Shown: positions 1 to 18,001 of the stretch, piece after piece
Position numbering within the stretch: the stretch's first letter is position 1
Layout: every line of letters starts with the position of its first letter
Source of the DNA: Nitrospinota bacterium
GTDB taxonomy: Bacteria > UBA8248
Assembly: GCA_046581755.1 (NCBI GenBank)
Contig: JAYGFR010000140.1
Span: forward strand, 1 to 22,118
Direction of reading: 5' to 3'
DNA: 22,118 bases
Translations under genes and position numbers: made by a program
The notes under the pieces: model-generated
Databases searched by the model: none
The model's input: only the letters and a program-made list of their open reading frames with translations
Told to the model about the DNA's origin: nothing

Positions 1-1232
1 CCCTTGAAAAAGGCAGCGGCCAGTATTTCGTCCTTGCTCCAAAAACCCGCGAGCGGCGGAACCCCGGCGATGGCGACCGCGCCAATCACGAACGTCCAGT
101 AGGTGATGGGCAAACGCGACCTCAGTCCGCCCATATAGCGCATATCCTGTTGTTGATCGGCTGGCGCCTGGTGGAGCGCGTGGATAACGCTTCCGCTGCC
201 CAAAAAGAGCAGGCCCTTGAAGAAGGCGTGGGTCATGAGGTGAAAAATCCCCGCCCCGAATGCGCCCACGCCCATGGCCATGAACATGAAGCCGAGCTGG
301 CTCACCGTACTGTAGGCAAGTACGCGCTTGATGTCGTTTTGAACGAGTCCGATGGAGGCCGCGAATATCGCCGTGACCGCGCCAACGACGGCGATGACCT
401 CGAGCGCCCCGGTGCCCATCACATAGATGTGGCTCGACCGCGCCACCATGTAGACCCCGGCCGTCACCATGGTGGCCGCATGGATGAGGGCGCTGACCGG
501 AGTGGGGCCTTCCATCGCGTCCGGGAGCCAAACATAGAGCGGAATCTGGGCGCTCTTTCCGACCGCGCCGATGAACAGGAGCAGGCCGATGGCGGTTGCC
601 GTCGACTCCATCATTTTCGGCGCCGCCCGGAAAACTTCTTGATAAACCAGGCTGTCCGTGCTGATCCAGATGAGGAACATCCCCATGAGGAATCCCGCAT
701 CCCCGATGCGGTTGACGATGAACGCCTTTTTCCCGGCATCGGAGGCGGATTTCTTTTCGAACCAGAAACCGATCAGGAGATAGCTGCAAAGCCCCACACC
801 CTCCCAACCGACGAACATGAGCAGGTAGTTGTCGCCCAGGACGAGGATGAACATCGATAGCATGAAGAGATTCAGGTAGGCGAAGAACCGGGGATAGCCG
901 GGATCGCCCTGCATGTATCCGACCGAGTAGATATGGACCAGGAAGCCCACGCCCGATACGACGAGGAGCATGATCGTACTCAGGGGATCGATCAGGAAGC
1001 TGACCGACACCGAAAACTTGCCCGCGTCGATCCAGGGCCACAGGGTGACCGTTCCGCCCTTGCCGGCGCCGAAGATCATCTCGGCCGCGATTACGAGAAC
1101 GACGAGGAACGAGAGCCCCGCCATCGCCGATGCGATGAGGCCCGCCTTGTCCCGGGTGCGGGAGCCGAAGCAGCCGTTGATAATTGCGCCCACCGCCGGA
1201 AACAGCGGAATGAGCCAGGCAAGTCCAATCAT
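1..1232 (-). CDS. nuoL: Complex I-like antiporter subunit L, second operon; 5' part only, truncated by window edge (about 410 codons visible)
   Basis: Absent from the ORF track because no stop lies in the window; translated by hand. ATG at 1232 follows TAGGAATCGC. Reads MIGLAWLIPLFPAVGAIING...FVGWEGVGLCSYLLIGFWF...GKSAQIPLYVWLPDAMEGPTPVSALIHAATMVTAGVY...HLMTHAFFKGLLFLGSGSVIH...GFWSKDEIL, all NuoL signature motifs. Confidence 0.96.
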   Translation of the reverse strand, partial: MIGLAWLIPLFPAVGAIINGCFGSRTRDKAGLIASAMAGLSFLVVLVIAAEMIFGAGKGGTVTLWPWIDAGKFSVSVSFLIDPLSTIMLLVVSGVGFLVHIYSVGYMQGDPGYPRFFAYLNLFMLSMFILVLGDNYLLMFVGWEGVGLCSYLLIGFWFEKKSASDAGKKAFIVNRIGDAGFLMGMFLIWISTDSLVYQEVFRAAPKMMESTATAIGLLLFIGAVGKSAQIPLYVWLPDAMEGPTPVSALIHAATMVTAGVYMVARSSHIYVMGTGALEVIAVVGAVTAIFAASIGLVQNDIKRVLAYSTVSQLGFMFMAMGVGAFGAGIFHLMTHAFFKGLLFLGSGSVIHALHQAPADQQQDMRYMGGLRSRLPITYWTFVIGAVAIAGVPPLAGFWSKDEILAAAFFK

Positions 1233-1239
1233 GCGATTC

Positions 1240-1542
1240 CTACCACTTCAAAAGGTTGACTTCGTCTACGTTGAGGACCGTCCGGTCCCGGTTCAGGGCG
1301 ATCAAGATGGCCAGGCCCACGGCCGCCTCGGCCGCCGCCACGGTGATAACGAAAATGGCGAACACCTGGCCCGCCATATCTCCCCACTGGCGCGAGAAGC
1401 CGACGAAGGTGATGTTCACGGCGTTCAGCATCAACTCGATGCTCATCAAGATGATGATGGCGTTTCGCCGCATCAAAACGCCCGCGGCCCCGATCACGAA
1501 CATGATCGCGCCCAGCGCCAGATAATGAGAAAGAGGAACCAT
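1240..1542 (-). CDS. nuoK: Complex I-like subunit K, second operon
   Basis: 100 aa with 3 TM segments; [19 protein letters not shown] and [11 protein letters not shown] retain both conserved Glu residues. Confidence 0.97.
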
Positions 1543-1559
1543 CTAAATTCTCCCAGCCC

Positions 1560-2078
1560 TTACCGTTCGATTGTCCGCTTTGCGAGGACGATGGCGCCGA
1601 TCATGGCCGCCAGCAGCAGCACCGATGCCACCTCGAACGGAAACAGATACTTCGTATAGAGAACCGACCCGAGGGCCTCGACGTTTCCCGGGGTTGCCCC
1701 GAGGGTCCATGCATACCCTTTAAACGCCGGATAAGCCGTTCCCCGCCCCAGGACCGTCCAAACCTCGGCCGCCAGAACCAGGGCGGCGATGACCACAAAG
1801 AAACTTTGGCGGTGATACTGGCGCAGCCGCACGGATATTTCCACGTTCATCAACATGATGGAAAACAGGTAGAGCACCATAATGCCGCCCACGTAGAGCA
1901 GAATCTGGACCACCGCCAGGAATTCGGCCCCGGCCACGACGTACACCCCGGCCAGGAAAAAGAACGTCAGCACAAGCAGCAGCGCCGCGTGGATGACGTT
2001 CGATCGGGTCACCATCAGGAGCGAGGCTCCGATGATGCCGGCCGCGAACATATAAAAGAACAGTTTTTCGAATTCCAA
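1560..2078 (-). CDS. nuoJ: Complex I-like subunit J, second operon
   Basis: 172 aa hydrophobic protein; AEFLAVVQILLYVGGIMVLYLF and YLFPFEVASVLLLAAMIGAIVLA; TTG start with GAGG upstream. Confidence 0.95.
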   Translation of the reverse strand: MEFEKLFFYMFAAGIIGASLLMVTRSNVIHAALLLVLTFFFLAGVYVVAGAEFLAVVQILLYVGGIMVLYLFSIMLMNVEISVRLRQYHRQSFFVVIAALVLAAEVWTVLGRGTAYPAFKGYAWTLGATPGNVEALGSVLYTKYLFPFEVASVLLLAAMIGAIVLAKRTIER

Positions 2079-2096
2079 AATTCTCGCCTCGCCCGG

Positions 2097-3065
2097 CTAT
2101 TCGATAAAGAGAAACTTCACCAATCCGGTCAGGAAAATATTCAGGATCACGAGCGGGAACATGAACTTCCACCCCAACCGCATCAGCTGATCGTAGCGGT
2201 AGCGGGGAAGGGTCGCCCGAATCCAGATGAACACAAATATCAAGACCGCCAATTTTATCAGGTACCAGACGAAACCGGGCAGCGGAATGCCCGGGATTCC
2301 GTGCCATCCGCCCAGGAACACCGAGATGCCGATGGTCGATATCGCCATGATGTTGGCGTACTCGGCCAGGAAGAAAAAGGCAAATTTCATCCCGCTGTAC
2401 TCGGTGTGGAAACCGGCCACGAGTTCGGTTTCCGCCTCGGGCAGATCGAAGGGAATGCGGTTCGTCTCGGCCAGCGCTGCGACGAAAAACACGATGAACG
2501 CCAAGGGCTGATAAAATACGAACCAGCCTCCCGCCTGGGCCTCCACGATCATTTTCAGATTGAGCGAACCGGCCAGCATGAGCGGCCCGATGAGGGAGAA
2601 GCCCAGAAAAATTTCATAGCTCAGCATCTGGGCCGCACTGCGCAGCGCGCCAAGGAGGCTGTATTTGCTGTTCGAGGCCCAGCCCGCCATGACGATGCCG
2701 AATACGCCCAGCGAACTCACCGCCAGAACGAGGAAAATTCCAACGTTGACCTGGGTGATGTAGAAGTTGGGATCGAAGGGAAGCACCGAGTAGACCACGA
2801 ACGCCGGCACCAGCACCATAATGGGCGCGATGACGAAAACGATCTTGTCCGCCTTGTCGGGGATGATGTCTTCCTTGAGGAAGAGCTTGAGCCCGTCGGC
2901 GATGGGCTGGAGGAGCCCGTGCCAGCCGACGCGCATGGGGCCCAGGCGCATCTGGATATGCCCTATGATCTTGCGCTCCAGGTAGGTCAGGTACGCCACC
3001 ACCAGGGATATCGCGCCGAGGACCATCGCAATCTTGATAAAGGCGGCAAGTAGTTCAGCAATCAT
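2097..3065 (-). CDS. nuoH: Complex I-like subunit H, second operon
   Basis: 322 aa; [67 protein letters not shown]. Confidence 0.97.
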
Positions 3066-3088
3066 ATCCTGTAAAAAATCCCTCTCCT

Positions 3089-3111
3089 CCTGGAGCCGGG
3101 CCGGCCCCAGG
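3089..3111 (-). other. GC-rich stem-loop between nuoD-2 and nuoH-2
   Basis: mRNA strand CCTGGGGCCG-GCC-CGGCTCCAGG forms a 10-bp stem with one G.U pair, followed by AGGAGAGGGATTTTTT. Confidence 0.45.
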
Positions 3112-3113
3112 GG

Positions 3114-4256
3114 CTATCTGTCGCACTCTCCCAGGACGATATCGATGCTGCCGATAATCGAGATTACGTCCGCCAAAAGCACGCCCACGCAAAGCTTTTT
3201 CAATCCGGCGAGATGGATGAACGAGGGCGGCCGGATACGTACGCGGTAGGGCGTCTCCGTCCCATCGCTCACGACATAAAATCCGAACTCGCCCTTGGGG
3301 TTTTCGATGCTGTGATAAATCTCTCCCGCCGGAGGTTTGATCGTGCGCGGCGTCTTGCAGCTCACCGGCCCCTCCGGAAGCATGTCGAGGCATTGGTTGA
3401 TGATGTGCGCGCTCTGGCGCATCTCGATGATGCGGACCAAGTAGCGGTCGTACACATCGCCGTTCTCGCCGATGGGCACCGTGAAATCCACAAACGGGTA
3501 GGCGGCGTAGGGCTTCGCGCGCCGAAGGTCCCACTTCACCCCGGAGGCCCGGAGAATGGGCCCCGTCATGCCGTAATCCATGGCGTCTTCGGCCGAAATA
3601 ACGCCGACCCCGCGCGTCCGCTGAATCCATATGCGGTTCTCGGTCAACAGGGTCTCGTAGTCGTCCACCCGGCTCGGGAAGATATCGATAAACTCCTGGG
3701 CCTCGGTCAGGAACTGGGGAGGAACGTCCTGGTACAGCCCTCCCAGGCGGAATGCGTTCACGGTGAGACGCGCCCCGAAGGCCCTCTCGAACAAATCGAG
3801 CACCATCTCGCGCTCGCGGAAGCACCAAAGAAAAACCGTCATCGCGCCAATATCGAGCGCGTGGGTGGCCAGCCACAAGAGATGGCTTGCGATCCTGGAA
3901 AGCTCGGCGACCATGGTTCGGATAAAGAGCGCCCGCAGCGGGATTTCCCAATCGAAAAACGACTCAACCGCCTGAACCCAGGCCAGGTTGCTCGACGGGG
4001 CGGCGATGTAGTCGAGCCTGTCCGTATAGGGGATGAACATCGTGTAGGTGAGATTTTCCCCCATCTTCTCGGTGCCCCGGTGAAGGTAGCCAATGTCGCA
4101 ATCGAGGTCCTTGACCGTCTCGCCTTCGAGTTTGAGGATGACGCGGAGCACCCCGTGCGTGCTGGGATGCTGCGGCCCCATGTTGATGACGAGTTCCTCG
4201 GTCCCCGGCACCGTGCTGATGCGCTCTATCCGGGAAGAAGAATCCACTCCGACCAT
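3114..4256 (-). CDS. nuoD: Complex I-like subunit D, short form, second operon
   Basis: NMGPQHPSTHGVLR, GYLHRGTEK, DRLDY, ENPKGEFG, DIVLGECDR. ATG at 4256 is preferred over TTG at 4259 because of the GGGAG site upstream. No NiFe CxxC motifs. Confidence 0.96.
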   Translation of the reverse strand: MVGVDSSSRIERISTVPGTEELVINMGPQHPSTHGVLRVILKLEGETVKDLDCDIGYLHRGTEKMGENLTYTMFIPYTDRLDYIAAPSSNLAWVQAVESFFDWEIPLRALFIRTMVAELSRIASHLLWLATHALDIGAMTVFLWCFREREMVLDLFERAFGARLTVNAFRLGGLYQDVPPQFLTEAQEFIDIFPSRVDDYETLLTENRIWIQRTRGVGVISAEDAMDYGMTGPILRASGVKWDLRRAKPYAAYPFVDFTVPIGENGDVYDRYLVRIIEMRQSAHIINQCLDMLPEGPVSCKTPRTIKPPAGEIYHSIENPKGEFGFYVVSDGTETPYRVRIRPPSFIHLAGLKKLCVGVLLADVISIIGSIDIVLGECDR

Positions 4257-4278
4257 CAAAATTTCTCCCGCATCGATT

Positions 4279-4342
4279 CAACCGCTCAACTTACCCAACT
4301 GCTCAACTTAAATAGCGCCGCACCCGGCCATTCAAACTTAAA
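4279..4342. repeat. Short direct-repeat tract in the nuoC-2/nuoD-2 spacer
   Basis: CAACCGCTCAACTTA (4279-4293) and CAACTGCTCAACTTA (4296-4310); CAAC recurs with 8/9/8-bp spacing; related TCAAACTTAAA at 4332-4342. Confidence 0.6.
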
Positions 4343-4357
4343 ACGGGACCGCTGGCG

Positions 4358-4945
4358 CTAATCGCCGATTTCCTTGCGCTTGGGTTTCGTGTACACCCGC
4401 TCTCCTAGGCCCTCGAGAGGATAATCCTTGCGGAGCGGATGGCTCCCCCAATTCTCGGGAAGGAGAATCCGGCGGGGGTCCGGGTGGTCCTTGAAACCGA
4501 CGCCGAACAGGTCGATGACCTCGCGCTCCATCCAGTTGGCGCTGGACCACACCTCCGACAAGGTGGGGACATCCTGCCTCTCTTTCACCTTCACCTTCAG
4601 GCGGAGGAGGCGACCATGATCGATGCTGACCAACTGGTAGACAATCTGAAACGGCTTCTCGTCGTCCGGATAATGGACGGCGGCCAAATCGGTCAAAATC
4701 TTGAAGCTCGAATCCGGGTGATCGCGCAGAAGGGTGGCCACCTTCACCAGCGCGTCCTCCTTGAGGACAAACGTGGCCTCATCCTCCCGGTCCTCGTATG
4801 CCGTCACTTCGAGGATCGCGTCCGGGTACTCGGCCTCGACCAAATCCCTGAGCGCCTGCCCGGGAGGCGTCTTCGGCGCCACGGGCGCTTCGGCCTCTTG
4901 GGCATTTTCTCCGTTCGCTTCTCCGGCTACGGCCTCGTCTGGCAT
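4358..4945 (-). CDS. nuoC: Complex I-like subunit C, second operon
   Basis: 195 aa; WSSANWMEREVIDLFGVGFKDHPDPRRILLP...HPLRKDYPL; acidic N-terminal extension. Confidence 0.96.
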   Translation of the reverse strand: MPDEAVAGEANGENAQEAEAPVAPKTPPGQALRDLVEAEYPDAILEVTAYEDREDEATFVLKEDALVKVATLLRDHPDSSFKILTDLAAVHYPDDEKPFQIVYQLVSIDHGRLLRLKVKVKERQDVPTLSEVWSSANWMEREVIDLFGVGFKDHPDPRRILLPENWGSHPLRKDYPLEGLGERVYTKPKRKEIGD

Positions 4946-4955
4946 CTTTGGGAAT

Positions 4956-5447
4956 CTACGCCGCCGAACGACTCCTGCGGACGAACCTTTCTTGCTCGAT
5001 CTTTTTCTGAAGCTGCATTACGCCCCACATCAAGGATTCCGGGCGGGGGGGGCATCCCGGGATATACACATCGACGGGGATGATCTCGTCCACCCCCTGC
5101 ATCACAGCGTAATTCGCGTACGGCCCGCCGCACGTCGAACAATTGCCCATCGAAATGACCCACCGGGGCTCGGGCATCTGGTTGTAAACCCGGAGGATGG
5201 CATCGCCCATTTTGTGGGTCACAGTCCCGGCGATGATGATGACGTCCGATTGCCTGGGAGAGGCCCGGAAAATGACCCCGAAGCGGTCGAAGTCGTACCG
5301 CGCGGCCCCGGAGGCCATCATCTCGATGGCACAGCACGCCAGGCCGAACGTCATCGGCCAAAGCGAGCTTTTCCGGGCCCATGCCACCAGGCTGTCGAAT
5401 TTCGTGGTGATAAAATTATCGCCGAGCTTTCCGTCGATTAAGCCCAT
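4956..5447 (-). CDS. nuoB: Complex I-like subunit B (N2 cluster), second operon
   Basis: Likely start is ATG at 5447 (MGLIDGK...), overlapping the nuoA stop by 10 bp; the track ORF is over-extended. Motifs [36 protein letters not shown]. Confidence 0.96.
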
Positions 5448-5833
5448 TCCAGCGCTCCCTTCCGCCAGGCATAAAAATAGCCGACGAGTAGAATCGCGAT
5501 GAACAGCATCATTTCCACAAACCCGAAGAGACCCAAGGCATCGTATTTCACCGCCCAGGGAAAAAGGAACATGGCCTCTACATCGAAGAGGAGAAACAAA
5601 ATACCGAGGAGATAAAAACGGATCGAAAACCGCTCGTGAGCCTCCATGAGCGGGGGCATTCCGCACTCGTAGGGAGCCAGCTTTTCGGGATTGGGCTTGT
5701 GCGGCCGGATGATGAAGGCGGCCAGCAGAGTCCCGCCGGCGAAGCCGAGAGCCACAAGCAAGAAGATGAATAACGGAACGTATCCGTTAATCACGCTGTA
5801 ATCGCCAAAAAACGCAGCTAAGAACTCCTGCAA
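5438..5833 (-). CDS. nuoA: Complex I-like subunit A, second operon
   Basis: [43 protein letters not shown]. Start uncertain: TTG at 5833 has GAGGT 5 nt upstream; the alternative is GTG at 5845. Confidence 0.93.
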
Positions 5834-5980
5834 ACCGTACCTCACTCAGGCTCGAACATTGGTATGCGGGCTCCGGAATTTTTTATGCGTCTACCCGTAA
5901 ATACCCGGCTGATTATGAATACGCCACGAGGGCGAAAATGGTCTAAGCTTTTGTATATCTTCTTCATTCCACGTGTTGTG

Positions 5981-6008
5981 ACTATACCACGGGAAATGGG
6001 CAAATCAA
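5981..6008 (-). promoter_or_regulatory. Putative sigma70 promoter of the second operon (extended -10)
   Basis: Minus strand TTGATT-N16-TATAGT with TGn immediately before the -10 (TGGTATAGT), in an AT-richer spacer. Confidence 0.6.
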
Positions 6009-6028: not shown

Positions 6029-7534
6029 CTAGTTCAAAAGGAGGCTCGAGTGCCGGGCGAGTTCCATCACCACGCCCGGGAACAACCCCAGATTCAGGGT
6101 GGCGATAACCGCCAAAAACAAGGCGAAAAAAGCGTATGGCCCCGCCCAGTCCGCCGCCCCCGGACCGGGGTGCTCCTCCCCGCCGGCGGCGGGCTCATTC
6201 ATGTACATCAACACCACCAAGCGGAGATAGTAATACACCGATACCACGCTGTTCAGGACCGCCACCACAACCAGCCATACATGGCCCGTCTCGATCGCCG
6301 CGCTGAAAATGTAAAACTTTGCGACAAATCCGCCCGTGGGAGGCAGGCCGGCCAACGAAACCATGAAAATCGCCATCGCGGCGGCCAGAACCGGTCGGGT
6401 GAATCCCATCCCGGCGTAATCCTCAATCTCGGTCCGCTCTCCGCCGCCCGCTCCCGCCACGGTCACCACGCAAAACGCACCCAAGTTCATGAACGCATAG
6501 ACGAGCAGATAGTACAGAAATCCGCCCGTGGCCAGGGTCCCGCCCTCGCTGGCAGATACCAGGGCGACCAGGATGTATCCCGAATGGGCGATGCTGGAGT
6601 AGGCCAACATTCGTTTTATGTTCGATTGCCAGATGGCCACCACGTTGCCCACCGTCATCGTTATGGCCGCGATGATCCAAAGGACCGTGACGAAATTCGG
6701 GCCCGAAAAATCCGAAACCGTCAGCACAATCCGGAAAAACGCCGCGAATGCGGCCGCCTTCGGCCCCACCGACATAAACGCCGTCACCGCCGTGGGCGAG
6801 CCCTCATAGACGTCCGGCGTCCACATGTTGAACGGAACCGCCGCCACCTTGAAGCCCAGGCCAACGACGAGGAACCCGATACCCAACAGGAACGCCGAAT
6901 TCCGCGATACGGGGTTGGCGCGCAAATGCACCGCGATCTCAGCTAGGTCCACCGATCCCGCCGCGCCGTAAATCATGGCCATCCCGAACAAGAGGAATCC
7001 CGAGGCGAACGACCCGAGGATGAAATATTTCAGCGCAGCCTCGTTCCCCTTCAAATCGAACCGGAGATAGCCCGCCAGCACATAGAGCGAGATCGAGAGA
7101 ATTTCCAGGCCGATGAAGATCATCAGCATATTCCGCGTCCCCGCCATGAGCATCATCCCCGAACTGGCGAAAAGGATGAGCGCGAAATACTCGCCCGCCG
7201 GAGCCTCATCGAGGCTCATTTGAGCGCCGGCGACCAGGACCGATAGAAAACTCGCCAAAAGAATCAGGATAAAAACAAAGGCCGTGAATCTGTCGAATAC
7301 ATACATGCCCCCGAACGAGACGGCCCCGCCCGAGGGGCCGGCCATGGCCCACAGCACCGCGCCGCCGGCGCTGACCAATACCGCCAAGGTCAAGCCGGTG
7401 AGGAATGTCCGGTCCCGCGAGCGGAAAAACGTATCCCAGAGCAAAACCGCAACGGCCCCGACCACCACTATCAGCAGCGGCGACAACTCAAGCCAATGAA
7501 TCGTGGGAATGACGAAGCCGGCGGCCTGTTTCAT
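6029..7534 (-). CDS. nuoN: NADH-quinone oxidoreductase subunit N
   Basis: 501 aa; FIGLEILSISLYVL, EAALKYFILGS, GFKVAAVPFNMWTPDVYEGSP, KRMLAYSSIAHSGY, GLPPTGGFVAKF; ATGA overlap with nuoM. Confidence 0.97.
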   Translation of the reverse strand: MKQAAGFVIPTIHWLELSPLLIVVVGAVAVLLWDTFFRSRDRTFLTGLTLAVLVSAGGAVLWAMAGPSGGAVSFGGMYVFDRFTAFVFILILLASFLSVLVAGAQMSLDEAPAGEYFALILFASSGMMLMAGTRNMLMIFIGLEILSISLYVLAGYLRFDLKGNEAALKYFILGSFASGFLLFGMAMIYGAAGSVDLAEIAVHLRANPVSRNSAFLLGIGFLVVGLGFKVAAVPFNMWTPDVYEGSPTAVTAFMSVGPKAAAFAAFFRIVLTVSDFSGPNFVTVLWIIAAITMTVGNVVAIWQSNIKRMLAYSSIAHSGYILVALVSASEGGTLATGGFLYYLLVYAFMNLGAFCVVTVAGAGGGERTEIEDYAGMGFTRPVLAAAMAIFMVSLAGLPPTGGFVAKFYIFSAAIETGHVWLVVVAVLNSVVSVYYYLRLVVLMYMNEPAAGGEEHPGPGAADWAGPYAFFALFLAVIATLNLGLFPGVVMELARHSSLLLN

Positions 7535-9075
7535 TGCTTGGGCCCCTGGATGCGCCGGGAGGCCAGGCGCGGCGCTGGCGCCTTCACGCTAAGCACCCGC
7601 CGGTTGACCTGGCGGAGCCACTTCTGGGCGGAGGGCTCGATTGTTTTCAGGATGGGCCTGGGATAAAGACCCAGCCCGAACATCAACGCCACGAGGGGAA
7701 CCAGGACACACCACTCGCGCGCGCTCAGGTCACGAAGCCCGAGATTGGCCGCCGAGGGATTTCCGTTAAACAAAACACGCTGGAGCATCCAGAGCATATA
7801 GACCGCCGCCAGCACAACGCCCGAGGCCGCCACTATCGTGAAGACCGGGTGCGGGCCGAAGGCCCCCGCCAGGATCGTGAACTCGCCGACAAATCCGTTC
7901 AGGCCGGGAAGGCCGATGCTGCTCAGGGCGGCGATCACGAAAAAGACGGAAAAGACCGGCATCACCCGGGCGATACCGCCGAAGTCCGCAATCATCCGGG
8001 TATGCCTTCGGCTGTAAATCATTCCGACGATCAGGAACAGCGCCCCGGTGCTTACCCCGTGGTTCACCATCTGGATGACACTGCCCGTGGCGCCCAGGAG
8101 GGTGAAGCTGAAGAGCCCGAGAACGACAAAGCCCAGGTGGCTCACCGACGAGTAGGCCACCAGCTTTTTCATGTCGTCTTGCACCATCGCGACGAGCGCA
8201 CCGTAGACGATCCCGATAACGGCCAGGACCATGATCGCCGGAGCGAACTCGCGCGCCGCCTCCGGGAACAGGGGCATGGCCAGCCGCATGAGGCCGTAGG
8301 TGCCCATCTTCAGGAGCACGCCCGCCAGAATCACGCTCCCCGCCGTGGGGGCCTCGACGTGGGCGTCGGGCAGCCAGGTATGGAACGGGAAAACCGGAAC
8401 CTTGATCGCGAACGACAGGGCAAAGGCGGCGAAGAGCCAGCCTTGGAGCGCATGATCGACCGGATCGCTCAGGTGGGTCAGGATGTCGAACGTCTTCGCG
8501 CCGGTCGCGAAATAAAGCCACAGAATCGCCACCAGCATGAGCGCGCTGCCCGCCATCGTGTAGAGAAAAAATTTCACCGCCGCGTAGATGCGCCGGGCTC
8601 CACCCCATACACCGATGATCAGGTACATCGGAATGAGCATCCCCTCCCAGAAGACATAGAAGAGGAAAAAATCCAGCGCCACGAACACGCCGAGCATACC
8701 GGTCTCGAGAAACAGGATTGACATGTAATAGAGGCGAACGCGCCGATCCACGTCCTGCCAGGAGAACAAAACGGCGATCGGCGTCAGAAACGTCGTCAGG
8801 AGAACCAAGGGAAGGCTGATGCCGTCCAGCCCCACGTGGTAGGAAATCCCGAACTGGGGAATCCATGCCGCCTTCTCGGTGAACTGCATTTCGGCATTCT
8901 CGCGGAATCCGGCATATATCCAGGCGGAAATCGCGAACGCCGCCAGGACGAACGCCATCGAAATGAGGCGCACCCGCCGCCTTCCCTCCTCGCTGGCATC
9001 GTTCACGAAGACCAAGGCAAGCCCTCCCGCCAGCGGGAGGAAAATCATCCACGTAATCAGGGGAAAATCGCTCAA
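7531..9075 (-). CDS. nuoM: NADH-quinone oxidoreductase subunit M
   Basis: 514 aa; FYVFWEGMLIPMY, AIKVPVFPFHTWLPDAHVEAPT, LLKMGTYG, GLPGLNGFVGEF; TTG start. Confidence 0.97.
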   Translation of the reverse strand: MSDFPLITWMIFLPLAGGLALVFVNDASEEGRRRVRLISMAFVLAAFAISAWIYAGFRENAEMQFTEKAAWIPQFGISYHVGLDGISLPLVLLTTFLTPIAVLFSWQDVDRRVRLYYMSILFLETGMLGVFVALDFFLFYVFWEGMLIPMYLIIGVWGGARRIYAAVKFFLYTMAGSALMLVAILWLYFATGAKTFDILTHLSDPVDHALQGWLFAAFALSFAIKVPVFPFHTWLPDAHVEAPTAGSVILAGVLLKMGTYGLMRLAMPLFPEAAREFAPAIMVLAVIGIVYGALVAMVQDDMKKLVAYSSVSHLGFVVLGLFSFTLLGATGSVIQMVNHGVSTGALFLIVGMIYSRRHTRMIADFGGIARVMPVFSVFFVIAALSSIGLPGLNGFVGEFTILAGAFGPHPVFTIVAASGVVLAAVYMLWMLQRVLFNGNPSAANLGLRDLSAREWCVLVPLVALMFGLGLYPRPILKTIEPSAQKWLRQVNRRVLSVKAPAPRLASRRIQGPKQ

Positions 9076-9094
9076 ACGCTTCTTCCTTTCCCGG

Positions 9095-11014
9095 CTACTT
9101 CGCGCCCGCGGTGAGGTAGAGAATAATCGCCAGCGCTCCGGCGAGCATCACCGCCGCGTAGCTTTTTACGTAACCCGTCTGAAGCCGGCGGACGGCCGAG
9201 CCGGCCATGCCGACAAATCCGCCCGCGCCGTTCACCGAGGCATCCAACAGGCCATCGTCGAAATTCCGCCAGAGGCGCACGGAAAGCCGCCGGATGGGCT
9301 GAACGATTCGCGCATCGTAAATCTCGTCGATGTAGTATTTGTTGAACACCAGGCGATAGAGGCCCGGCCAGCGTTCGGCGTAGGCGCTGGCGCCGGCGCC
9401 GGCCGAGTTCATGACGAAAAGGCTGTAGGCCAGATACCACCCCAAAATGGCGATGGCGAGCGAGAACAGCATCATCGCCAGCTCAAAGATCACCTCGTGA
9501 TGCGCCTCTGCGCCTCCGCCGAAAACGGGTGCGAGGAAATCGCCGAAAATGTTCGCCCCCGCGATGATGGGAATTCCGACCCAGCCGCCCGCGATGGAAA
9601 GAAACGCCAGCACCATGAGCGGCCCGGTCATGGTGCCGGGAGATTCATGCAGTTTTTGTTGATTCTCGATCGATAGGGCGCATCGTCCGTAGAAGGTCTT
9701 GAATATCAGCCGGAAAATATAGAACGCCGTCATAAGCGCGCCGGCCGCGCCGGCCAGCCAAAACCCGATCCCTCCCCGCGAGGAGGTCATCGCCGAATAC
9801 AAAATGGCGTCCTTGCTGAAGAATCCCGCCAGCGGAAACACCCCGGCGATGGCGAACGCGGCGATGGTGCAGGTCCAGCACGTCACCGGAAGCGCCGCGC
9901 GCAGGCCGCCCATCCGGTTCATTTTCTGCTCGCCGCCCACCGCGTGGATGACGCTCCCCGCGCCCATGAAGAGAAGCGCCTTGAAAAAGGCGTGGGTCAT
10001 CAGGTGAAAGATGGCGGCCGTATAGGCGCCCAGCCCGCAGGCCATGACCATGTACCCGAGCTGGCTCACCGTGCTATAGGCGAGCACGCGCTTGATGTCG
10101 GTCTGCACCATCGCGATCGAGGCCGCCACCAGGAGGGTGAGCGCCCCGACCACCGCCACGACGTTCATCGCCAGCGGCGAGAGTTCGAAAAGAAAATAGG
10201 TCCGCGCCAGCAGGTAAACCCCCGCCGTGACCATGGTCGCGGCGTGGATGAGCGCGCTGACGGGGCTGGGCCCCTCCATCGCATCGGGCAGCCAGATATA
10301 GAGCGGGATCTGCGCGCTCTTGCCCGTCGCCCCCGCAAAGAGGAGCAGGCCTATCGCGGCCGCCACGCCGCTCCCGGCCGTCAGCTTGGCCGCCGCGGCG
10401 GCCTGGATTTGGGTAAAGTCGAGCGTTCCGAAGATTCCGATGACGATGAACATCGCGGTCAGGAAACAAAAATCGCCCACCCGGTTGACGATGAAGGCCT
10501 TCTTGCCCGCCTCGGAGGCGGCGGGCCGCTCGAACCAGAAACCGATCAAAAGATAGCTGCAAAGCCCCACGCCCTCCCAGCCAACGAACAACACGAGGAA
10601 GTTCGAGCCCAGGACCAGCGTGAGCATGAAAAATACGAACAGGTTCAGGTAGATGAAATACCGGACCGCGCTCCGGTCGCCGTGCATGTATCCCATCGAA
10701 TACACGTGGATGAGCGTGCCCACGCCAGTCACGACGAGCGTCATGAGCGAGGAGAGCGGATCGAGCATGAACCCGGCGCCGACCCGGAACGTCCCGATCG
10801 AGATCCAATCGAAGAGATCGATCCGGATCGCCCGGGCGTCCGCAGGAAGGCCCAGGAGCAGGAAAAAACCGATCAACGCGGCCGCGAACGCCAGCCCCAT
10901 AACGGAAACCGCCACCCAAGCGGCGAATTTCTCCCCCCGTCGCCAGCCGAAGATCAGGTTTACCAGGACTCCCGCAGCCGGGAGCAGCAATATGAATAAG
11001 GTCGGATTCATCAT
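9095..11014 (-). CDS. nuoL: NADH-quinone oxidoreductase subunit L
   Basis: About 639 aa; FVGWEGVGLCSYLLIGF, GKSAQIPL, HLMTHAFFKALLF, FFSKDAIL, C-terminal lateral helix ending RRLQTGYVKSY. ATG at 11014 overlaps the nuoK stop (TGATG). Confidence 0.97.
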   Translation of the reverse strand: MMNPTLFILLLPAAGVLVNLIFGWRRGEKFAAWVAVSVMGLAFAAALIGFFLLLGLPADARAIRIDLFDWISIGTFRVGAGFMLDPLSSLMTLVVTGVGTLIHVYSMGYMHGDRSAVRYFIYLNLFVFFMLTLVLGSNFLVLFVGWEGVGLCSYLLIGFWFERPAASEAGKKAFIVNRVGDFCFLTAMFIVIGIFGTLDFTQIQAAAAAKLTAGSGVAAAIGLLLFAGATGKSAQIPLYIWLPDAMEGPSPVSALIHAATMVTAGVYLLARTYFLFELSPLAMNVVAVVGALTLLVAASIAMVQTDIKRVLAYSTVSQLGYMVMACGLGAYTAAIFHLMTHAFFKALLFMGAGSVIHAVGGEQKMNRMGGLRAALPVTCWTCTIAAFAIAGVFPLAGFFSKDAILYSAMTSSRGGIGFWLAGAAGALMTAFYIFRLIFKTFYGRCALSIENQQKLHESPGTMTGPLMVLAFLSIAGGWVGIPIIAGANIFGDFLAPVFGGGAEAHHEVIFELAMMLFSLAIAILGWYLAYSLFVMNSAGAGASAYAERWPGLYRLVFNKYYIDEIYDARIVQPIRRLSVRLWRNFDDGLLDASVNGAGGFVGMAGSAVRRLQTGYVKSYAAVMLAGALAIILYLTAGAK

Positions 11015-11316
11015 CAAAGTTTCAATAAGTTCAATTCGTCAACGTCGGTGGACTCATGGTTCCGGTAAATCAATATCAGGATGGCGAGCCCGACCGCCGC
11101 TTCGGCCGCCGCCACTCCCATCACGAAAAACACGATGAGCTGGCCATCCATCGAATTCAGAAAATGGGCATACGTGACGAAAGCGAGATTTCCGGCGTTC
11201 AGCATGATCTCGATCGACATCACGACCACGATGGCGTTCCGCCGCACCACGACGCCCACGACGCCGATGACGAACAAAAGCGCGCTGATGGCCAAGTAAT
11301 GTTCCAGAGGAGCCAC
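11014..11316 (-). CDS. nuoK: NADH-quinone oxidoreductase subunit K
   Basis: 100 aa; [30 protein letters not shown]. Confidence 0.97.
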
Positions 11317-11335
11317 GCCTGCCCTTTCTTCGGGA

Positions 11336-11851
11336 TCAACCCGCTCTGCGGCGGGCCAGAACCACCGCGCCGATAACGCCCACGAAAAGCAATACCCCCA
11401 TCGCCTGGAAGGGCAGGAGGTAGTCGGTGAGCAGGATTTTTCCGATGAGCTGGGTATTGCCGATCTCGCTCACGCGCTCGGCCGAATATTGACCCTTCGC
11501 ACCGGTCAGGGGCGAACCCGAAAAAATCACCTTGAGCAGCAGGCCGAATATCCCCACCCCAGCCATGGCTCCAAAAAACTTTTGAACCGGCAGCCGCAGG
11601 GGAATCCGCTCGTCGCGCCGAAGGTCGAGAAGCATGACCACGAACAGGAAGAGCACCATGATGGCGCCGGCGTAAACGACCACCTGGACCACCGCGATAA
11701 ATTCCGCGCCCAGCGACAGGTAGAGCCCGGCCAGCCCGAGAAACGCCGCGACCAGACTGAGCACGCAGTAGAGTGGGTTCGGCAGCGCCACCACCCCGGC
11801 CGCGCCCGCGACCGTAACCGCCGCCGTGAGATAAAATAAAAATGAACCCAC
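11336..11851 (-). CDS. nuoJ: NADH-quinone oxidoreductase subunit J
   Basis: 171 aa; [27 protein letters not shown]; canonical position between nuoI and nuoK. Confidence 0.96.
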
Positions 11852-11875
11852 TAGCCTTTCCTCTCCCGCCGGCGC

Positions 11876-12355
11876 CTAGACATAGGTGAGCAGTTTCCGC
11901 TCGTCGTACCGGGTCTGGAGCTCCGGAATCTCGTCCGGGCGCTTCACCAGCAGATCGCCTTTTTCATAAAGGAACTTGCTCCGGTCATCCGCGCAGAATT
12001 CGTACTCGCTGCCCAATACGATGGCGCCCACCGGGCACGCCTCCTCGCAATAGCCGCAAAAAATGCACCGCAGCTCGTTGATCTCATACACCGAGGCGTA
12101 GCGCTCGCCTTTCGACACGGGCCGGGACGCCTCGTTTTCCTCCGATTCGACGAAAATGCAATCCACCGGGCAGGCCGCCGCGCAGAGCTTGCAGCCCACG
12201 CAGCGCTCGAGCCCGTCCTCCCACAAAAGCAGCTTGTGCAGGCCCCGGTATCCGGGCGGAAGCTCCTCCTTCACTTCGGGATATTGCACCGTCTCCCGGT
12301 TTTTGAACGAGTGCTTGATCGTCACCCACAGCCCGCGAAATATTTCGCCCAGCAT
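11876..12355 (-). CDS. nuoI: NADH-quinone oxidoreductase subunit I (2x[4Fe-4S])
   Basis: 159 aa; TVQYPE, CVGCKLCAAACP and CIFCGYCEEACP. Confidence 0.97.
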   Translation of the reverse strand: MLGEIFRGLWVTIKHSFKNRETVQYPEVKEELPPGYRGLHKLLLWEDGLERCVGCKLCAAACPVDCIFVESEENEASRPVSKGERYASVYEINELRCIFCGYCEEACPVGAIVLGSEYEFCADDRSKFLYEKGDLLVKRPDEIPELQTRYDERKLLTYV

Positions 12356-12404
12356 GTCATCTCCCCGCCCGGCCGCATCTCAAAGGGGGTCCCCCTCCGG
12401 CGGC

Positions 12405-13388
12405 TCAGGAATCCATAAAAACGATCACGCCCGCCGTCACCACCACGTTCAGAATCGAGAGCGGAAGGAGCACCTTCCAACCGAACGCCATGAGCTGATC
12501 GTAGCGCAGGCGCGGCGTCGAAGCCCGCAGCCACATGAAAAAAAACATGAACGCGAAAATCTTGATCAGGAACCACACCACCGGAGGAAGGATGGGCCCC
12601 CGCCATCCGCCCAGAAAAAACGTCGCCGCCACCGCCGAGAGCGTGATCATGTTGCAATACTCGGCCAGAAAATAGACCGCGAAGTTCATGCTGCTGTACT
12701 CGGTGTGAAAACCGCCCGTCAGCTCGCTCTCGGCCTCGGCCAGGTCGAACGGCGCCCGGTTGGTTTCGGCGATCATGCAAACCACGAACAGGAGAAACCC
12801 GAGCGGCTGAAGCACGATATAGGGCATCCCCGCCTGGCCCGCGACGATATCCTTCAGGCTCAGCGACCCCTGGATCATCACCACCCCGAGGAGGGACAGC
12901 CCCAGGGACAGCTCGTAGCTGATGAGCTGGGCCGAGGAGCGAAGGCCTCCCAGGAGGGGGTACTTGCTGTTCGATGCCCAGGCGCCGAGCACCACGCCGT
13001 AAACGCCCATGCCGCTCAGTGCGAGTATATACAGGATGCCCACGTTTACATCGGCCACCACCATGTCGATCTTCCGCCCGAAGAGAGTCAGCGAATCGCC
13101 GAAGGGCACCACCGCGAAGGCGGCGAGCGCCGGGATCAGCGTAATCGCCGGCGCGAGAAAATAGACGAACTTATCCGCCTGCATCGGGATAATCGTCTCC
13201 TTGAACATGAGCTTGATCCCGTCGGCGATGGGCTGGAGGAGGCCGGCCGGACCCACCCGGTTCGGGCCGTAGCGCACCTGGACGAGCGCGAAGACGCGCC
13301 GCTCCATCCACGTCATATAGGCGGCGATCAAGATCAGGGATCCGAACGCAACGGCGATCTTGACGATGACGATGATCAGCCCGGCCAT
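12405..13388 (-). CDS. nuoH: NADH-quinone oxidoreductase subunit H
   Basis: 327 aa; [60 protein letters not shown] directly abuts the nuoG stop. Confidence 0.97.
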   Translation of the reverse strand: MAGLIIVIVKIAVAFGSLILIAAYMTWMERRVFALVQVRYGPNRVGPAGLLQPIADGIKLMFKETIIPMQADKFVYFLAPAITLIPALAAFAVVPFGDSLTLFGRKIDMVVADVNVGILYILALSGMGVYGVVLGAWASNSKYPLLGGLRSSAQLISYELSLGLSLLGVVMIQGSLSLKDIVAGQAGMPYIVLQPLGFLLFVVCMIAETNRAPFDLAEAESELTGGFHTEYSSMNFAVYFLAEYCNMITLSAVAATFFLGGWRGPILPPVVWFLIKIFAFMFFFMWLRASTPRLRYDQLMAFGWKVLLPLSILNVVVTAGVIVFMDS

Positions 13389-15986
13389 TTAATCCCCCGC
13401 CCCCTCTTTTTCCGCGATCGCAACCCGGATAGCGGCGCCGCGCGCTCCCCCGTCTCCGCCCCGGTTCAAGAAGGCCCCGCCCAGCGCGCCCAGATATCCC
13501 TCCGGGGCCAGCGCCACGCCCACGGGAAGGGAGCTGTCCACCCGCACGGGCAGCCGGACCGTCTCCCCGCCCAAATCGATGCGGGCCTCCTGGCCGTCCT
13601 CAACGCCCAGCCTTCCGGCGTCGGGAGGAGATAGCCGCAACGCGGCCCCCGGCAGGTCGGCGAGGTGGCGCGCCGAGGCGGCGTACGCTCCGGCGAGCCA
13701 GAGGGTGGGCGATAAAATCATCCGCAGCCCCTCCGGCGGGGTTTCGGCGGGAGTGTGATCCACGGCCCGGAAAGCGCCTTCTTTTATTCGCGCCAGCCGG
13801 ATTCCCGCTTCCGGCATCTTTCCGAAGACCTGGCCGTATTCCCCGGAGAGAAGGCGAATTTCGGCCTGGATGGCGGGCACGCCCTGGGCTTTCATCGGGC
13901 GATTCATGCACCGGGCGATCTCTCCGAATACGCGCCATGCCTCCCGGCCTCCCGGCCCGGCCGGGGGCTTCACCGCCCGGCGCAGCCGCTGGACGCGGCG
14001 CTCCATGTTCGTGACCGTTCCCTCTTCCTCGTAGGTCGTCAGCGCCGGGAGAATCACATTGGCGTACTCGAGGCTCGCGTTCCGGTGGGATGCGTGGACG
14101 ACCACGAACTCCGCACCCGCCAGCCCCCGGCGTGCGAAATCGCCGTCCGGGTGCTCGGCGGCGGGATCGCACTCGAACAGGTAAAGGCCCTTGATTCCGC
14201 CCTCGGCCGCTCCGGCGAGGATAGCGTCCGTCCCGAGGCCCGAGGAATCCGGGACCGGCCTTCCCCACACATCGGCGCAGGCCTGTCCGGCGGCATCATC
14301 GCCCGCCGGCCGTCCTCCCGGAAGGAGACCGGGGTGGACGCCCATGTCGATCGCTCCCTGAAGGTTCGATGCGCCCGAAGCGAAAAGGATTTCCGCGTTC
14401 AGCATCCGGGCGATGTTGATCGCCTCGGCCGCCGCCTCCCCGTCCCGAAGGCCGGGGCCCACGACCACCGCAATTCCCCCCTCTGCCGGGCGAAGCGCAC
14501 GGCCCGCCGTCTCTATTTCTCCGGCATCGACAGCCGATTCCCGGCAAAGCGATCCCGCATCCGCCTTCTCGATAGCGCTCCGGTAGGCATCGGCCCCCTC
14601 TCCCCTGGGAGCGGCGCCCGCATCCAGGAGTGTTTTGGCCAGCGCCGTAAGCGCCCGCACCTCCTCGCCCGGAACGGGGTTTAGATGGTGCATCCGCCCG
14701 GACAAGTTCAAATCAATCCGCCGGGGATGGACGCTGACCACGCTCCCGCCGGCGGCGTGGGCCTTGCGCACCTGGAGGGCCATGATCGGGTGCTCCTCGA
14801 AGGGATCGCTTCCCACCAGCAGTATCGCCTTGGCCCGGCCGAGGCCTTCCAGGGAGCCGAACCCGCCGGCCGCGCCGAGCCCGGCGCGCTGGGCCTCGGT
14901 CTGGTTCACGTCGCGCGGGTGAATCCGGCAGTCGAGGTTGTTGCTCCCCAGGACCGAGCGGACGAAGGCGCCGAACCGGTAGGCCCCCTCGTTCGTCGAG
15001 CGGGCCCCGCCCAGCCCGGCCAGGGCGCCGCCGCCGCTTTGAGCGCCGATCTCCCCGAGGCGCCGGGCAATCAGGGCGAGCGCTTCGCCCCAGTCCGCGG
15101 GCCGGAGATCGCCGCCCTCGCGGATCATGGGGCCCTCGATCCGGCCCTCGCCCTGGACGCCGCTCCAACCCCACCGGCCCACGTCGCAGATCCAGCTGTC
15201 ATTCACCGCGTCGTTCTCGCCGGCGGTGACGCGCTTGAGCTCATCCTCGCGGCTCCAGACCCTCTGGCGGCAGCCCACGCCGCAAAGCGTGCAGGGCCCC
15301 TCGACGTGGCGCATCTCCCAGACGCGGGCGGTGAAGCGGTACTTGTTGTCGGTGAGCGCGCCCACGGGGCAGATATCGATCACGTTGCCCGAGACGATGC
15401 TCCTCATCGGCAGATCCCCGAAAACGCCCACCTCGGTCCGATCGCCCCGGTTGGCCCAGCCGAACTCGCCGCCCCCGTCGATCTCCTGGGTGAAGCGGAT
15501 ACAGCGGGTGCAGTGCACGCACCGGTTCATCTCAGGCTTGATGTAGGGACTGATCATTTTTTGGGGATAAATCCGCCGCAACTCGTGCGTCCGGCTAATG
15601 GCCTTGGCGTAGGCCATCGACTGATCCTGGAGGGGGCATTCGCCGCCCTGATCGCAGACCGGGCAATCGAGCGGGTGGTTCTTGAGCAAGAACTCGAATA
15701 CGCCCTCGCAGGCCTGTTTGACGCGCGTGCTCTCGGAGTCCACCACCATCCCCTCGGCCACCGGGATGGCGCACGAGGGCTGGAGCTTGGGGATGGGTTT
15801 TCCGTTGCCCGCGTCCAGGATTTCCACCAGGCACGCGCGGCACTGGCCCACGACGGAAAGGTTCTTGTGGTAGCAAAAATGCGGGATATGGGTACCCGTC
15901 TGGAGCGCCGCGCCGAGGACGCTTTCGCCCTTGCGCGCCTTGATCGTGCGCCCGTTCAGGGTAAACGTGAGTTTCAAATCCACCAT
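13389..15986 (-). CDS. nuoG: NADH-quinone oxidoreductase subunit G (N1b, N4, N5, N7 motifs)
   Basis: 865 aa; HFCYH...GQCRAC...PSC, HPLDCPVCDQGGEC, CVHCTRC...ICPVGAL, CTLCGVGC-x27-C; molybdopterin-oxidoreductase-like C-terminal body. Confidence 0.96.
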   Translation of the reverse strand: MVDLKLTFTLNGRTIKARKGESVLGAALQTGTHIPHFCYHKNLSVVGQCRACLVEILDAGNGKPIPKLQPSCAIPVAEGMVVDSESTRVKQACEGVFEFLLKNHPLDCPVCDQGGECPLQDQSMAYAKAISRTHELRRIYPQKMISPYIKPEMNRCVHCTRCIRFTQEIDGGGEFGWANRGDRTEVGVFGDLPMRSIVSGNVIDICPVGALTDNKYRFTARVWEMRHVEGPCTLCGVGCRQRVWSREDELKRVTAGENDAVNDSWICDVGRWGWSGVQGEGRIEGPMIREGGDLRPADWGEALALIARRLGEIGAQSGGGALAGLGGARSTNEGAYRFGAFVRSVLGSNNLDCRIHPRDVNQTEAQRAGLGAAGGFGSLEGLGRAKAILLVGSDPFEEHPIMALQVRKAHAAGGSVVSVHPRRIDLNLSGRMHHLNPVPGEEVRALTALAKTLLDAGAAPRGEGADAYRSAIEKADAGSLCRESAVDAGEIETAGRALRPAEGGIAVVVGPGLRDGEAAAEAINIARMLNAEILFASGASNLQGAIDMGVHPGLLPGGRPAGDDAAGQACADVWGRPVPDSSGLGTDAILAGAAEGGIKGLYLFECDPAAEHPDGDFARRGLAGAEFVVVHASHRNASLEYANVILPALTTYEEEGTVTNMERRVQRLRRAVKPPAGPGGREAWRVFGEIARCMNRPMKAQGVPAIQAEIRLLSGEYGQVFGKMPEAGIRLARIKEGAFRAVDHTPAETPPEGLRMILSPTLWLAGAYAASARHLADLPGAALRLSPPDAGRLGVEDGQEARIDLGGETVRLPVRVDSSLPVGVALAPEGYLGALGGAFLNRGGDGGARGAAIRVAIAEKEGAGD

Positions 15987-16018
15987 GGCCTACGCCTCGT
16001 TTCGCCCGCTCGCCGCCC

Positions 16019-17332: not shown

Positions 17333-17347
17333 CCGCTCCGCATCTCC

Positions 17348-17974
17348 TTACCCGCGACCTTCATCCCCGGACCGTCCGGACTCGCCGCCGCCGTCCGCCG
17401 CCGCCACGGCTCCCGCGCCCGGCGGGGCCACTTCGTCCGCCCCGATGGGCGGCACGTACTCGCCTTTTTCGAGCGCCGAGACGATCTCCTCGAGCATCCC
17501 GGGCGTCGCCCACTCGAAGTAATCCTCGTTCACCTGCAGGCAGGGCGCGCCACCGCAGGCGCCCAGGCACTCGACCTTTTCGATGGAAAACTTGCCGTCC
17601 TCGCGGGTCTGGCCCGCCTTGATCCCCAACCTCGCCTCCAGCCCCCGCAGGAGCGGGTCCGCCCCCATCAGCGCGCACGAGAGATTGTTGCAGACCTGGA
17701 AGTGATACTCTCCGATAGGATGGGTCTTGAGCATACTGTAGAAGGTGACCACGCCCCAGACTTCCATCGGAGAGATCTCGAATATCCCGGCCACATGCTG
17801 CATGACCGCGCTCGAAATGAAGCCGTTTTGTCTCTGTGCAAGCGTGAGCGCCGGGACGAGGGCCGAGCGCTTCACCGGGTATTTTTCGATAATCCGATCC
17901 AGTTCGGCGCGCGCGCCGGGCTCGAACTCGAACCGCTCTTCCTTCGCCGAATGCGGAAACCGATCGATCGACAA
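17348..17974 (-). CDS. nuoE: NADH-quinone oxidoreductase subunit E (N1a)
   Basis: 208 aa; VVTFYSM, CNNLSC, ECLGACGGAP; TTG start with AGGAG upstream; Gly/Ala/acidic C-terminal tail. Confidence 0.96.
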   Translation of the reverse strand: MSIDRFPHSAKEERFEFEPGARAELDRIIEKYPVKRSALVPALTLAQRQNGFISSAVMQHVAGIFEISPMEVWGVVTFYSMLKTHPIGEYHFQVCNNLSCALMGADPLLRGLEARLGIKAGQTREDGKFSIEKVECLGACGGAPCLQVNEDYFEWATPGMLEEIVSALEKGEYVPPIGADEVAPPGAGAVAAADGGGESGRSGDEGRG

Positions 17975-18001
17975 GTAGTGCTCCTGAATTCCGGACCGCC
18001 G

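Follow-up and report, generated by a model that had tools for sequence, protein, structure and literature searches.

A second, headless complex I operon in a Nitrospinota bacterium and its probable nuoI gene located elsewhere in the genome

Complex I-like enzymes of 11 subunits, which lack the N-module (NuoE, NuoF and NuoG), were counted in 181 of 1,516 organisms surveyed, and dispersal of their genes is common (PMC3144371). Ferredoxin has been proposed as the electron donor in Desulfitobacterium (PMC11238625), and in cyanobacterial and chloroplast NDH-1 it docks on NdhI and NdhH (PMC7021789). Operons of the composition nuoACDHJKLMN have been named in Acidobacteria by Hausmann et al. (bioRxiv 10.1101/197269), and a second complex I set beside the canonical one, NUO-2, is described for Nitrospina gracilis (PMC3578206), the only such set treated in the accessible part of PMC10839748. 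The UBA8248 lineage is named, without a description of its complex I, in the accessible part of PMC11920076. The window analysed in this study is a whole stretch of 22,118 nucleotides, namely the entire contig C397 (JAYGFR010000140.1) of a Nitrospinota bacterium of the UBA8248 lineage (assembly GCA_046581755.1, here G000; 4.2 Mb, 400 contigs, 96.5% complete). It carries, behind a complete 14-subunit nuo operon (operon 1), a second complex I-like operon (operon 2), which an earlier note had read as devoid of nuoI as well as of nuoEFG and hence, as encoded there, left with cluster N2 only. A comparison with the phylum group (51 genomes) leads to a different picture: operon 2 is real, intact and conserved, and it very probably belongs to a headless complex I of the ordinary 11-subunit kind, the nuoI of which has moved. 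The surprise of a complex I without NuoI is thereby removed, and the remaining result is useful but modest.

The remote nuoI-2 gene and the integrity of operon 2

A search of the whole G000 genome with the NuoI profile TIGR01971 (cut-off 113.05 bits) returned two proteins above the cut-off, NuoI-1 from operon 1 (142.6 bits) and NuoI-2, encoded on contig C351 (124.2 bits, spanning all 121 model positions). The earlier note had stated beforehand that a second nuoI elsewhere would speak against it, and this is what the search brought to light: operon 2 lacks nuoI, the genome does not, and a NuoI-less enzyme with N2 only is not supported. Among the three solutions which that note had offered for the missing subunit (a borrowed NuoI, a remote one, or another ferredoxin-like protein), the remote gene is the one favoured. 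The nuoI-2 gene starts 43 bp after trxB and is followed by genes for a nicotinate phosphoribosyltransferase and a DHH phosphoesterase. Its product retains both four-cysteine 4Fe-4S motifs (eight cysteines), and its alignment with solved NuoI/TYKY chains covers about residues 3-150 (start at residue 3-9), the N-terminal region included. Other 4Fe-4S proteins of G000 were considered as NuoI substitutes and set aside, the 11 further TIGR01971 matches reaching 41 bits at most.

All 20 nuoI-2 loci fetched, drawn from among the second-copy NuoI matches, have trxB directly upstream. We found no description of a trxB-nuoI link, or of the tandem operon layout for this lineage, in the open-access literature, and the accessible parts of PMC12170339, PMC4758237 and PMC12361115 contain nothing specific to this layout. 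Taken together with a contig from an RNA sequencing run that crosses the trxB/nuoI-2 junction, the linkage might be read as a sign that the orphan NuoI works unbound, as a ferredoxin-like partner to the thioredoxin reductase encoded next to it, with complex 2 using N2 alone or some other ferredoxin-like protein. We regard this as highly improbable: NuoI-2 scores above the NuoI cut-off across the full length of the profile and follows the solved NuoI chains from their N-terminal region on, TrxB itself scores above the ordinary TIGR01292 cut-off, and two genomes of Acidobacteria that carry the sister operon (both Vicinamibacterales) have their single nuoI side by side with their single nuoB, far from the nuoACDHJKLMN operon. 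Judging from co-occurrence and from the trees described below, nuoI-2 very probably completes complex 2 as its eleventh subunit.

The other ten subunits are encoded by operon 2, which begins 183 bp after operon 1 on the minus strand and runs nuoA-B-C-D-H-J-K up to the start of nuoL. Its description in the earlier note holds well: the eight tightly packed reading frames are open, the D-H gap of 48 bp and the H-J gap of 18 bp were measured as claimed, so that no room is left for E, F, G or I, and the translations contain the HPSTH and DRLDY motifs of NuoD-2, the four N2 cysteines of NuoB-2 and both glutamates of NuoK-2. The promoter ascribed to the operon fared less clearly, as the 183-bp gap does contain a sigma-70-like site, but one that is a weak consensus match only (9 of 12 matches at 6008-5981, 0.3 expected in shuffles). 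Over its first 213 bases the window corresponds to the end of contig C211 (94.4% identity, ungapped), which carries the remainder of nuoL-2 along with nuoM (522 aa) and nuoN (503 aa), both intact and above TIGRFAM cut-offs. Operon 2 is therefore nuoABCDHJKLMN with one nuoM. The assembly break between C397 and C211 probably reflects strain variants; nuoL-2 is uninterrupted in 14 relatives. G000 thus encodes the full set NuoABCDHIJKLMN in intact form, NuoL across two overlapping contigs, and the scores of NuoD-2 (TIGR01962) and NuoB-2 (TIGR01957), both above cut-off, characterize a NuoD of the quinone-reducing type and a NuoB with N2 ligands. Genome-wide protein and family searches found a single set of NuoE, F and G in G000, inside operon 1; neither N-module genes of its own nor a long-loop NuoD, as in the 14-subunit NADH:quinone oxidoreductase, was found for operon 2. 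The absence of E, F, G and I asserted in the earlier note is thus correct for the operon and, as far as a second EFG set is concerned, for the genome, but not for nuoI.

That operon 2 could be a decaying relic, which the earlier note had doubted on the grounds of its retained residues, has next to no chance and is refuted at the sequence level. The ten genes, including those downstream of the window, show zero stops and zero frameshifts, NuoD-2 is 62-90% identical across 50 genomes, and operon 2 is the only complex I of two genomes (see below). Neither is there a signal of horizontal arrival in the GC content at third codon positions: three operon-2 genes lie at 0.80-0.81 and nuoI-2 at 0.74, against 0.79-0.85 for four genes of operon 1.

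Table 1. Location of the features discussed. Plain coordinates refer to the window; elsewhere the genome (G), contig (C) or locus (L) is given.
Feature	Location	Strand	Remarks
nuoL-2, 5' part	about 1-1232 (ORF 3-1232)	-	cut by contig end; continues on C211 (L002)
nuoK-2	1240..1542	-	open ORF, family match
nuoJ-2	1560..2078	-	18 bp after nuoH-2; nuoI not between
nuoH-2	2097..3065	-	48 bp after nuoD-2; E, F, G not between
nuoD-2, short-loop type	3114..4259	-	TIGR01962 511 bits, above cut-off
NuoD-2 Lys302...Lys308, candidate ferredoxin-contact residues	3336..3356	-	map to NdhH 315 and 321
nuoC-2	4358..4945	-	TIGR01961 134 bits, cut-off 122.45
nuoB-2	4956..5447	-	163 aa from ATG at 5447; TIGR01957 239 bits, cut-off 142.7; N2 ligands kept (alignment to NuoB-1)
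nuoA-2	5438..5845	-	open ORF; NCBIfam NuoA match
sigma-70-like consensus match	5981..6008	-	in 183-bp gap nuoN-1/nuoA-2
operon 1, complete 14-subunit nuoA-N	6029..20867	-	nuoI-1 at 11876-12355; holds the genome's only nuoEFG; not part of complex 2
TPR protein	21048-21689
msrA, 3' part	21792-22118
nuoI-2	G000:C351, L001 3405-3959		184 aa; full length; stand-alone, behind trxB
F420 biosynthesis operon (cofG, cofH, cofD, cofC, cofE) and split FrhB/FpoF-like gene	G000:C231, L212 3608-10001		FrhB/FpoF-like gene whole in four relatives read
type II NADH dehydrogenase	L254 916-2184 (G027), L255 919-2187 (G028)
Mrp-type cation/proton antiporter operon	C229 and C249 (L003 7164-10518, L004 1-2574)		divided between the two contigs
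sat-aprBA-qmoABC cluster	G000:C27, L214 5266-13432		npdG nearby
Rieske and split cytochrome b genes	G000:C75, L216 1734-5733		with divergent multi-cluster ferredoxin-like gene
ferredoxin-like gene near KorAB genes (G027, G028)	L250 10953-12409
KorA-type gene in two frames	G027:C6 803387-804015
NuoF-like/NuoG-like pair, family f4	L178 15984-19971, L180 15910-19426
Thermoleophilia operon	L093 8516-21097

Apart from the two operons, the window holds genes for a TPR protein, also found upstream of operon 1 in genome G010, and for the 3' part of msrA, which together precede operon 1. Candidates for a third complex I in G000 were rejected: a protein on contig C140 with 24% identity to NuoG matches formate dehydrogenase models, and the genes on C229 and C249 belong to an Mrp antiporter.

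Conservation, phylogeny and the genus without operon 1

NuoD-2 was found in 50 of the 51 genomes, the sole absence being in a genome that is 79% complete, and NuoI-2-type matches (at least 50% identity) in 48, three of them fragments; the three genomes in which NuoI-2 was not found (G021, G044 and G051) are all drafts. The survey of relatives proposed in the earlier note recovered the same D-H-J order, with nuoD-2 abutting nuoH-2 in all 30 loci and nuoH-2 abutting nuoJ-2 in all 29 that reach that far. Operon 2 lies directly behind nuoN-1 in 13 of the 15 genomes read in long stretches. In the 14 of these relatives read to nuoN, as in G000, a single nuoM precedes nuoN, and the second nuoM typical of the 2M type of complex I was found in none of them. 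In one genome, G026, the nuo locus appears twice, on contigs C8 and C11, with identical scores (9% contamination). Family f4 has, just upstream of operon 1, a divergent pair of NuoF-like (41%) and NuoG-like (26-28%) genes, probably of the formate dehydrogenase type; no pair of this kind was found in G000.

Phylogenetic analysis separates the second copies from the first. A quick NuoD tree (45 of 95 rows, with outgroups taken from the NuoD-2 search and hence biased) places the NuoD-2 orthologues in a clade (Shimodaira-Hasegawa-like approximate likelihood ratio test, SH-aLRT, 98) that is sister to Acidobacteria NuoDs (89) and apart from NuoD-1. A first NuoI tree of 79 rows, for which the careful search was incomplete and which included a non-NuoI outlier, was rebuilt on 47 rows after dropping the outlier and 31 near-redundant rows. 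In the rebuilt tree the NuoI-2 orthologues likewise form a clade (98/94), and the two clades display the same genus and family groupings. NuoI-1 lies on the other side of the branch (89/79) that joins NuoI-2 with the NuoIs of other headless operons. A single clade of NuoI-1 and NuoI-2 is rejected (approximately unbiased test, p-AU 6e-6), so NuoI-2 did not arise from NuoI-1 by local duplication.

Further comparative evidence comes from G027 and G028, two genomes of a single genus, each of 2.1 Mb and 95% completeness, in 6 and 2 contigs. Each holds one NuoI and one NuoH, belonging to a nuoI-2 behind trxB and to an ABCDHJKLMN operon, respectively. Protein and family searches with working controls found no NuoE, F or G in either genome, and NuoI-1 was not found, the sole NuoI being NuoI-2. 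Both genomes also encode a flavoprotein of 422 aa that, among solved structures, matches a type II NADH dehydrogenase best (NDH-2; E 5e-119) and is matched in just 3 other genomes of the 51, at 30-36% identity. This genus has apparently swapped its NADH entry point, from the 14-subunit operon to NDH-2. From the gene content of G027 and G028 it follows that operon 2 and nuoI-2 persist without operon 1 while NADH has another outlet. The option of a NuoI borrowed from operon 1 is thus not borne out, as NuoI-2 remains alongside operon 2 in genomes that lack operon 1, whereas the suggestion of an electron input other than NADH agrees with the single EFG set of G000 and with the lack of any in G027 and G028.

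The NuoD sequences point in the same direction. In the alignment, NuoD-2 is 25 residues shorter than NuoD-1 just before the C-terminal PxGE motif, and the missing segment, which presumably contacts NuoG, is present in all seven rows in which nuoEFG comes directly after nuoD, while the other 88 lack it (some genomes are represented by duplicate rows). One of the 88 short-loop rows, L093, is an exception in that its operon, from a member of Thermoleophilia and of the order A-B-C-D-H-I-E-F-G-J-K-L-M, has EFG at a later position. Three bacteria (L083, L088 and L089) show another rearrangement of short-loop complexes, with the order nuoB-D-I-C.

These data bear on the possibility that complex 2 shares the NuoEFG and NuoI of operon 1, making it a second NADH-fed isozyme. 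The tandem arrangement of the operons would suit such sharing, as would the L093 combination of a short-loop NuoD with EFG, and a Syntrophobacter genome is described as having a single nuoEFG for two sets of the other genes (PMC4453560). Still, we find it quite improbable, given that G027 and G028 keep complex 2 without EFG or NuoI-1 and with NDH-2, that a dedicated NuoI-2 exists, and that NuoD-2 is devoid of the 25-residue segment. For practical purposes, a short, lysine-bearing NuoD loop may serve as a flag for headless copies, and a remote nuoI (here behind trxB) should be sought before an operon is called NuoI-less.

Proposed electron donor and direction of complex 2

We propose that operon 2 and the remote nuoI together encode an 11-subunit, ion-pumping, headless complex I-like ferredoxin:menaquinone oxidoreductase, a reading that we consider likely and to which we would assign a probability of roughly 0.68. 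NuoI-2 would be built into complex 2; 2-oxoacid:ferredoxin oxidoreductases would reduce ferredoxin (or flavodoxin) as the donor, and electrons would pass from ferredoxin through N6a and N6b of NuoI-2 to N2 of NuoB-2 and on to menaquinone, with the complex pumping ions in the forward direction. Sources of reduced ferredoxin are present: POR_N was found in 50 of the 51 genomes (split in G027), and G000 has, as candidates, two KorAB-type gene pairs, one three-gene oxalate/pyruvate-type set and an aldehyde:ferredoxin oxidoreductase-like gene, alongside small FdxA-like ferredoxins. MqnC scores above cut-off in four of five genomes and a heme-copper oxidase was found in all five; acetyl-CoA synthase and RuBisCO were found in none of the five, with controls that worked. 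Forward flow from ferredoxin to menaquinone is therefore the most likely direction, and overall we judge that complex 2 is probably both ferredoxin-fed and forward-running. A search for ATP-citrate lyase (PF16114) gave no match in the 51 genomes, but as the control genomes were silent too it is uninformative.

Several side observations concern possible redox partners. In G027 the KorA-type gene falls into two frames, perhaps owing to a sequencing error. A divergent multi-cluster ferredoxin-like gene accompanies the Rieske and split cytochrome b genes on contig C75 of G000, and G027 and G028 have a similar gene, a candidate carrier, at a distance of about 3-4 kb from their KorAB genes.

Candidate docking sites can be named by comparison with NDH-1, where Lys315 and Lys321 of NdhH and Lys86, 89 and 91 of NdhI are the ferredoxin contacts according to Zhang et al. 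(PMC7021789). Within the C-terminal 102 residues of NuoD-2, positions 23-102 align on NdhH 315-394, which, as inferred from the equal lengths of the aligned ranges, places Lys302 and Lys308 at 315 and 321. Basic residues occupy the first of these positions in 86 and the second in 87 of the 88 short-loop rows, and neither position in any of the seven long-loop rows. The hairpin between the two clusters of NuoI comprises 26 aa with a mean net charge of +0.6 in 21 NuoI-2 rows, compared with 33 aa and -4.4 in 37 NuoI-1 rows; the NuoI-2 hairpin spans the NdhI lysine positions and its charge is +3 in G027 and G028.

A number of points weigh against this interpretation. The hairpin of G000 itself has a net charge of 0, with K85, R87 and K92 lying beside, not on, NdhI positions 86, 89 and 91; the mappings to both NdhH and NdhI depend on the equality of range lengths; and NdhH has an insertion of its own, of about 24 residues, just upstream of the mapped region. 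Because the L093 operon has EFG, the presence of an N-module is not strictly precluded by a short loop. In G021 and G051, drafts 93-94% complete that both have NuoD-2, no NuoI-2 was found, and the loss in G027 and G028 amounts to one evolutionary event, as they represent one genus. NuoI-2 joins the NuoIs of other headless operons at 89/79 only, with long branches, and the quick 79-row tree left its placement unresolved. We did not identify a specific ferredoxin partner.

Evidence on expression comes from contigs of four marine metatranscriptome runs from four studies, chosen by positions 1-9000 of the window and unable to rank genes. Contigs matching operon 2 at about 97-100% identity occur in all four runs (one, for example, covers 1,178 bases over nuoD-C-B with 11 differences), and contigs matching nuoI-2 in three, the lack of cover in the fourth (X4) being no evidence either way. 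This fits transcription of operon 2 and nuoI-2 without proving it, and DNA carry-over in these contigs, a further point against, cannot be excluded.

A different donor is suggested by F420-related genes. A FrhB/FpoF-like flavoprotein from the F420 operon might dock as the head on the same eleven subunits, forming a bacterial Fpo-like F420H2:menaquinone oxidoreductase; archaeal Fpo consists of an 11-subunit core plus FpoF (PMC3144371), a single PF04432 protein is present in 48 of the 51 genomes, and G000 has matches to cofG, cofH, cofD, cofC, cofE and npdG. The candidate head was nevertheless not found in G026, G027 and G028, which retain operon 2 and NuoI-2, and in G000 its gene is in two frames while complex 2 is intact. 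It scores higher with FrhB-type models (217 bits) than with FpoF (96 bits), in all cases below cut-off, and its relatives at 64-68% identity are labelled Gammaproteobacteria, a group that to our knowledge mostly has no headless complex. We thus consider such a head unlikely, and similarly doubtful the corollary that most of the phylum employs it in an aerobic, ion-pumping F420H2:menaquinone oxidoreductase from three unlinked loci, G000 and the reduced genus having fallen back on ferredoxin.

The direction might also be the opposite, an ion gradient driving ferredoxin reduction from menaquinol, as has been proposed for N. gracilis NUO-2 (PMC3578206) and as the earlier note had entertained. The sat-aprBA-qmoABC cluster of G000, which suggests sulfite oxidation or adenosine 5'-phosphosulfate reduction tied to the quinone pool, could feed the latter. 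On textbook potentials, however, four protons barely span the difference from menaquinol to ferredoxin. An extra NuoM is a feature tied to a higher pumping stoichiometry (PMC8004040), yet G000 and the 14 relatives have one nuoM only; neither acetyl-CoA synthase nor RuBisCO was found in the five genomes searched, and NUO-2 differs in having its own E, F and G and another gene order. A mainly reverse mode consequently found no support and stands little chance of being correct.

With ferredoxin as the donor to complex 2, a division of labour would be plausible in which operon 1 takes NADH and operon 2 the low-potential pool. In this uncultured marine phylum two complex I systems are kept as a tandem pair, the first for NADH and the second likely for ferredoxin. 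With one genus that has lost the NADH type, possesses NDH-2 and retains the headless type, the lineage offers a clean comparative case for what feeds 11-subunit complexes.

Comparison with known systems

Neither the N. gracilis NUO-2 nor the 2M layout fits operon 2. NUO-2 resembles it as a second set beside a canonical one, but consists of nuoACHIJKLMN and nuoEGD with separate nuoB and nuoF (PMC3578206), and 2M complexes have two nuoM genes (PMC8004040), whereas operon 2 has one. The Chloroflexus 2M cluster was not taken as a precedent because it is written without I yet counted as 12 genes (PMC8004040). Archaeal Fpo shares the 11-subunit core, and G000 likewise has an FrhB/FpoF-like protein and F420 genes, but the eight operon-2 subunits scanned are all below Fpo cut-offs, and the gene for the FpoF-like protein lies apart from operon 2, is broken into two frames in G000 and was not found in three relatives keeping complex 2. 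With cyanobacterial and chloroplast NDH-1 (PMC7021789) the likeness extends to the headless core and to K302 and K308, which map to NdhH 315 and 321; NDH-1 differs in using plastoquinone, in its extra subunits (NdhO, S and V) and in the insertion of NdhH, and NuoI-2 is far below the ndhI cut-off in the relatives scanned.

The closest counterparts are the Acidobacteria operons, which read A-C-D-H-J-K-L-M-N in most loci. They encode the closest NuoD outside the phylum (57-61% identity), also with a short loop, and have nuoI outside the operon; the difference is that there nuoB is displaced as well, lying beside the remote nuoI in three of five genomes, whereas here it stays inside the operon. 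Since the sister operons also have nuoI elsewhere, its displacement appears to be a habit of this clade, and split operons of the clade are already in print for Acidobacteria. Like complex I-like enzymes of 11 subunits in general, complex 2 would comprise NuoABCDHIJKLMN without an N-module and has ferredoxin as its proposed donor; what sets it apart is a nuoI that is detached and linked to trxB, and an operon located directly behind a complete 14-subunit one.

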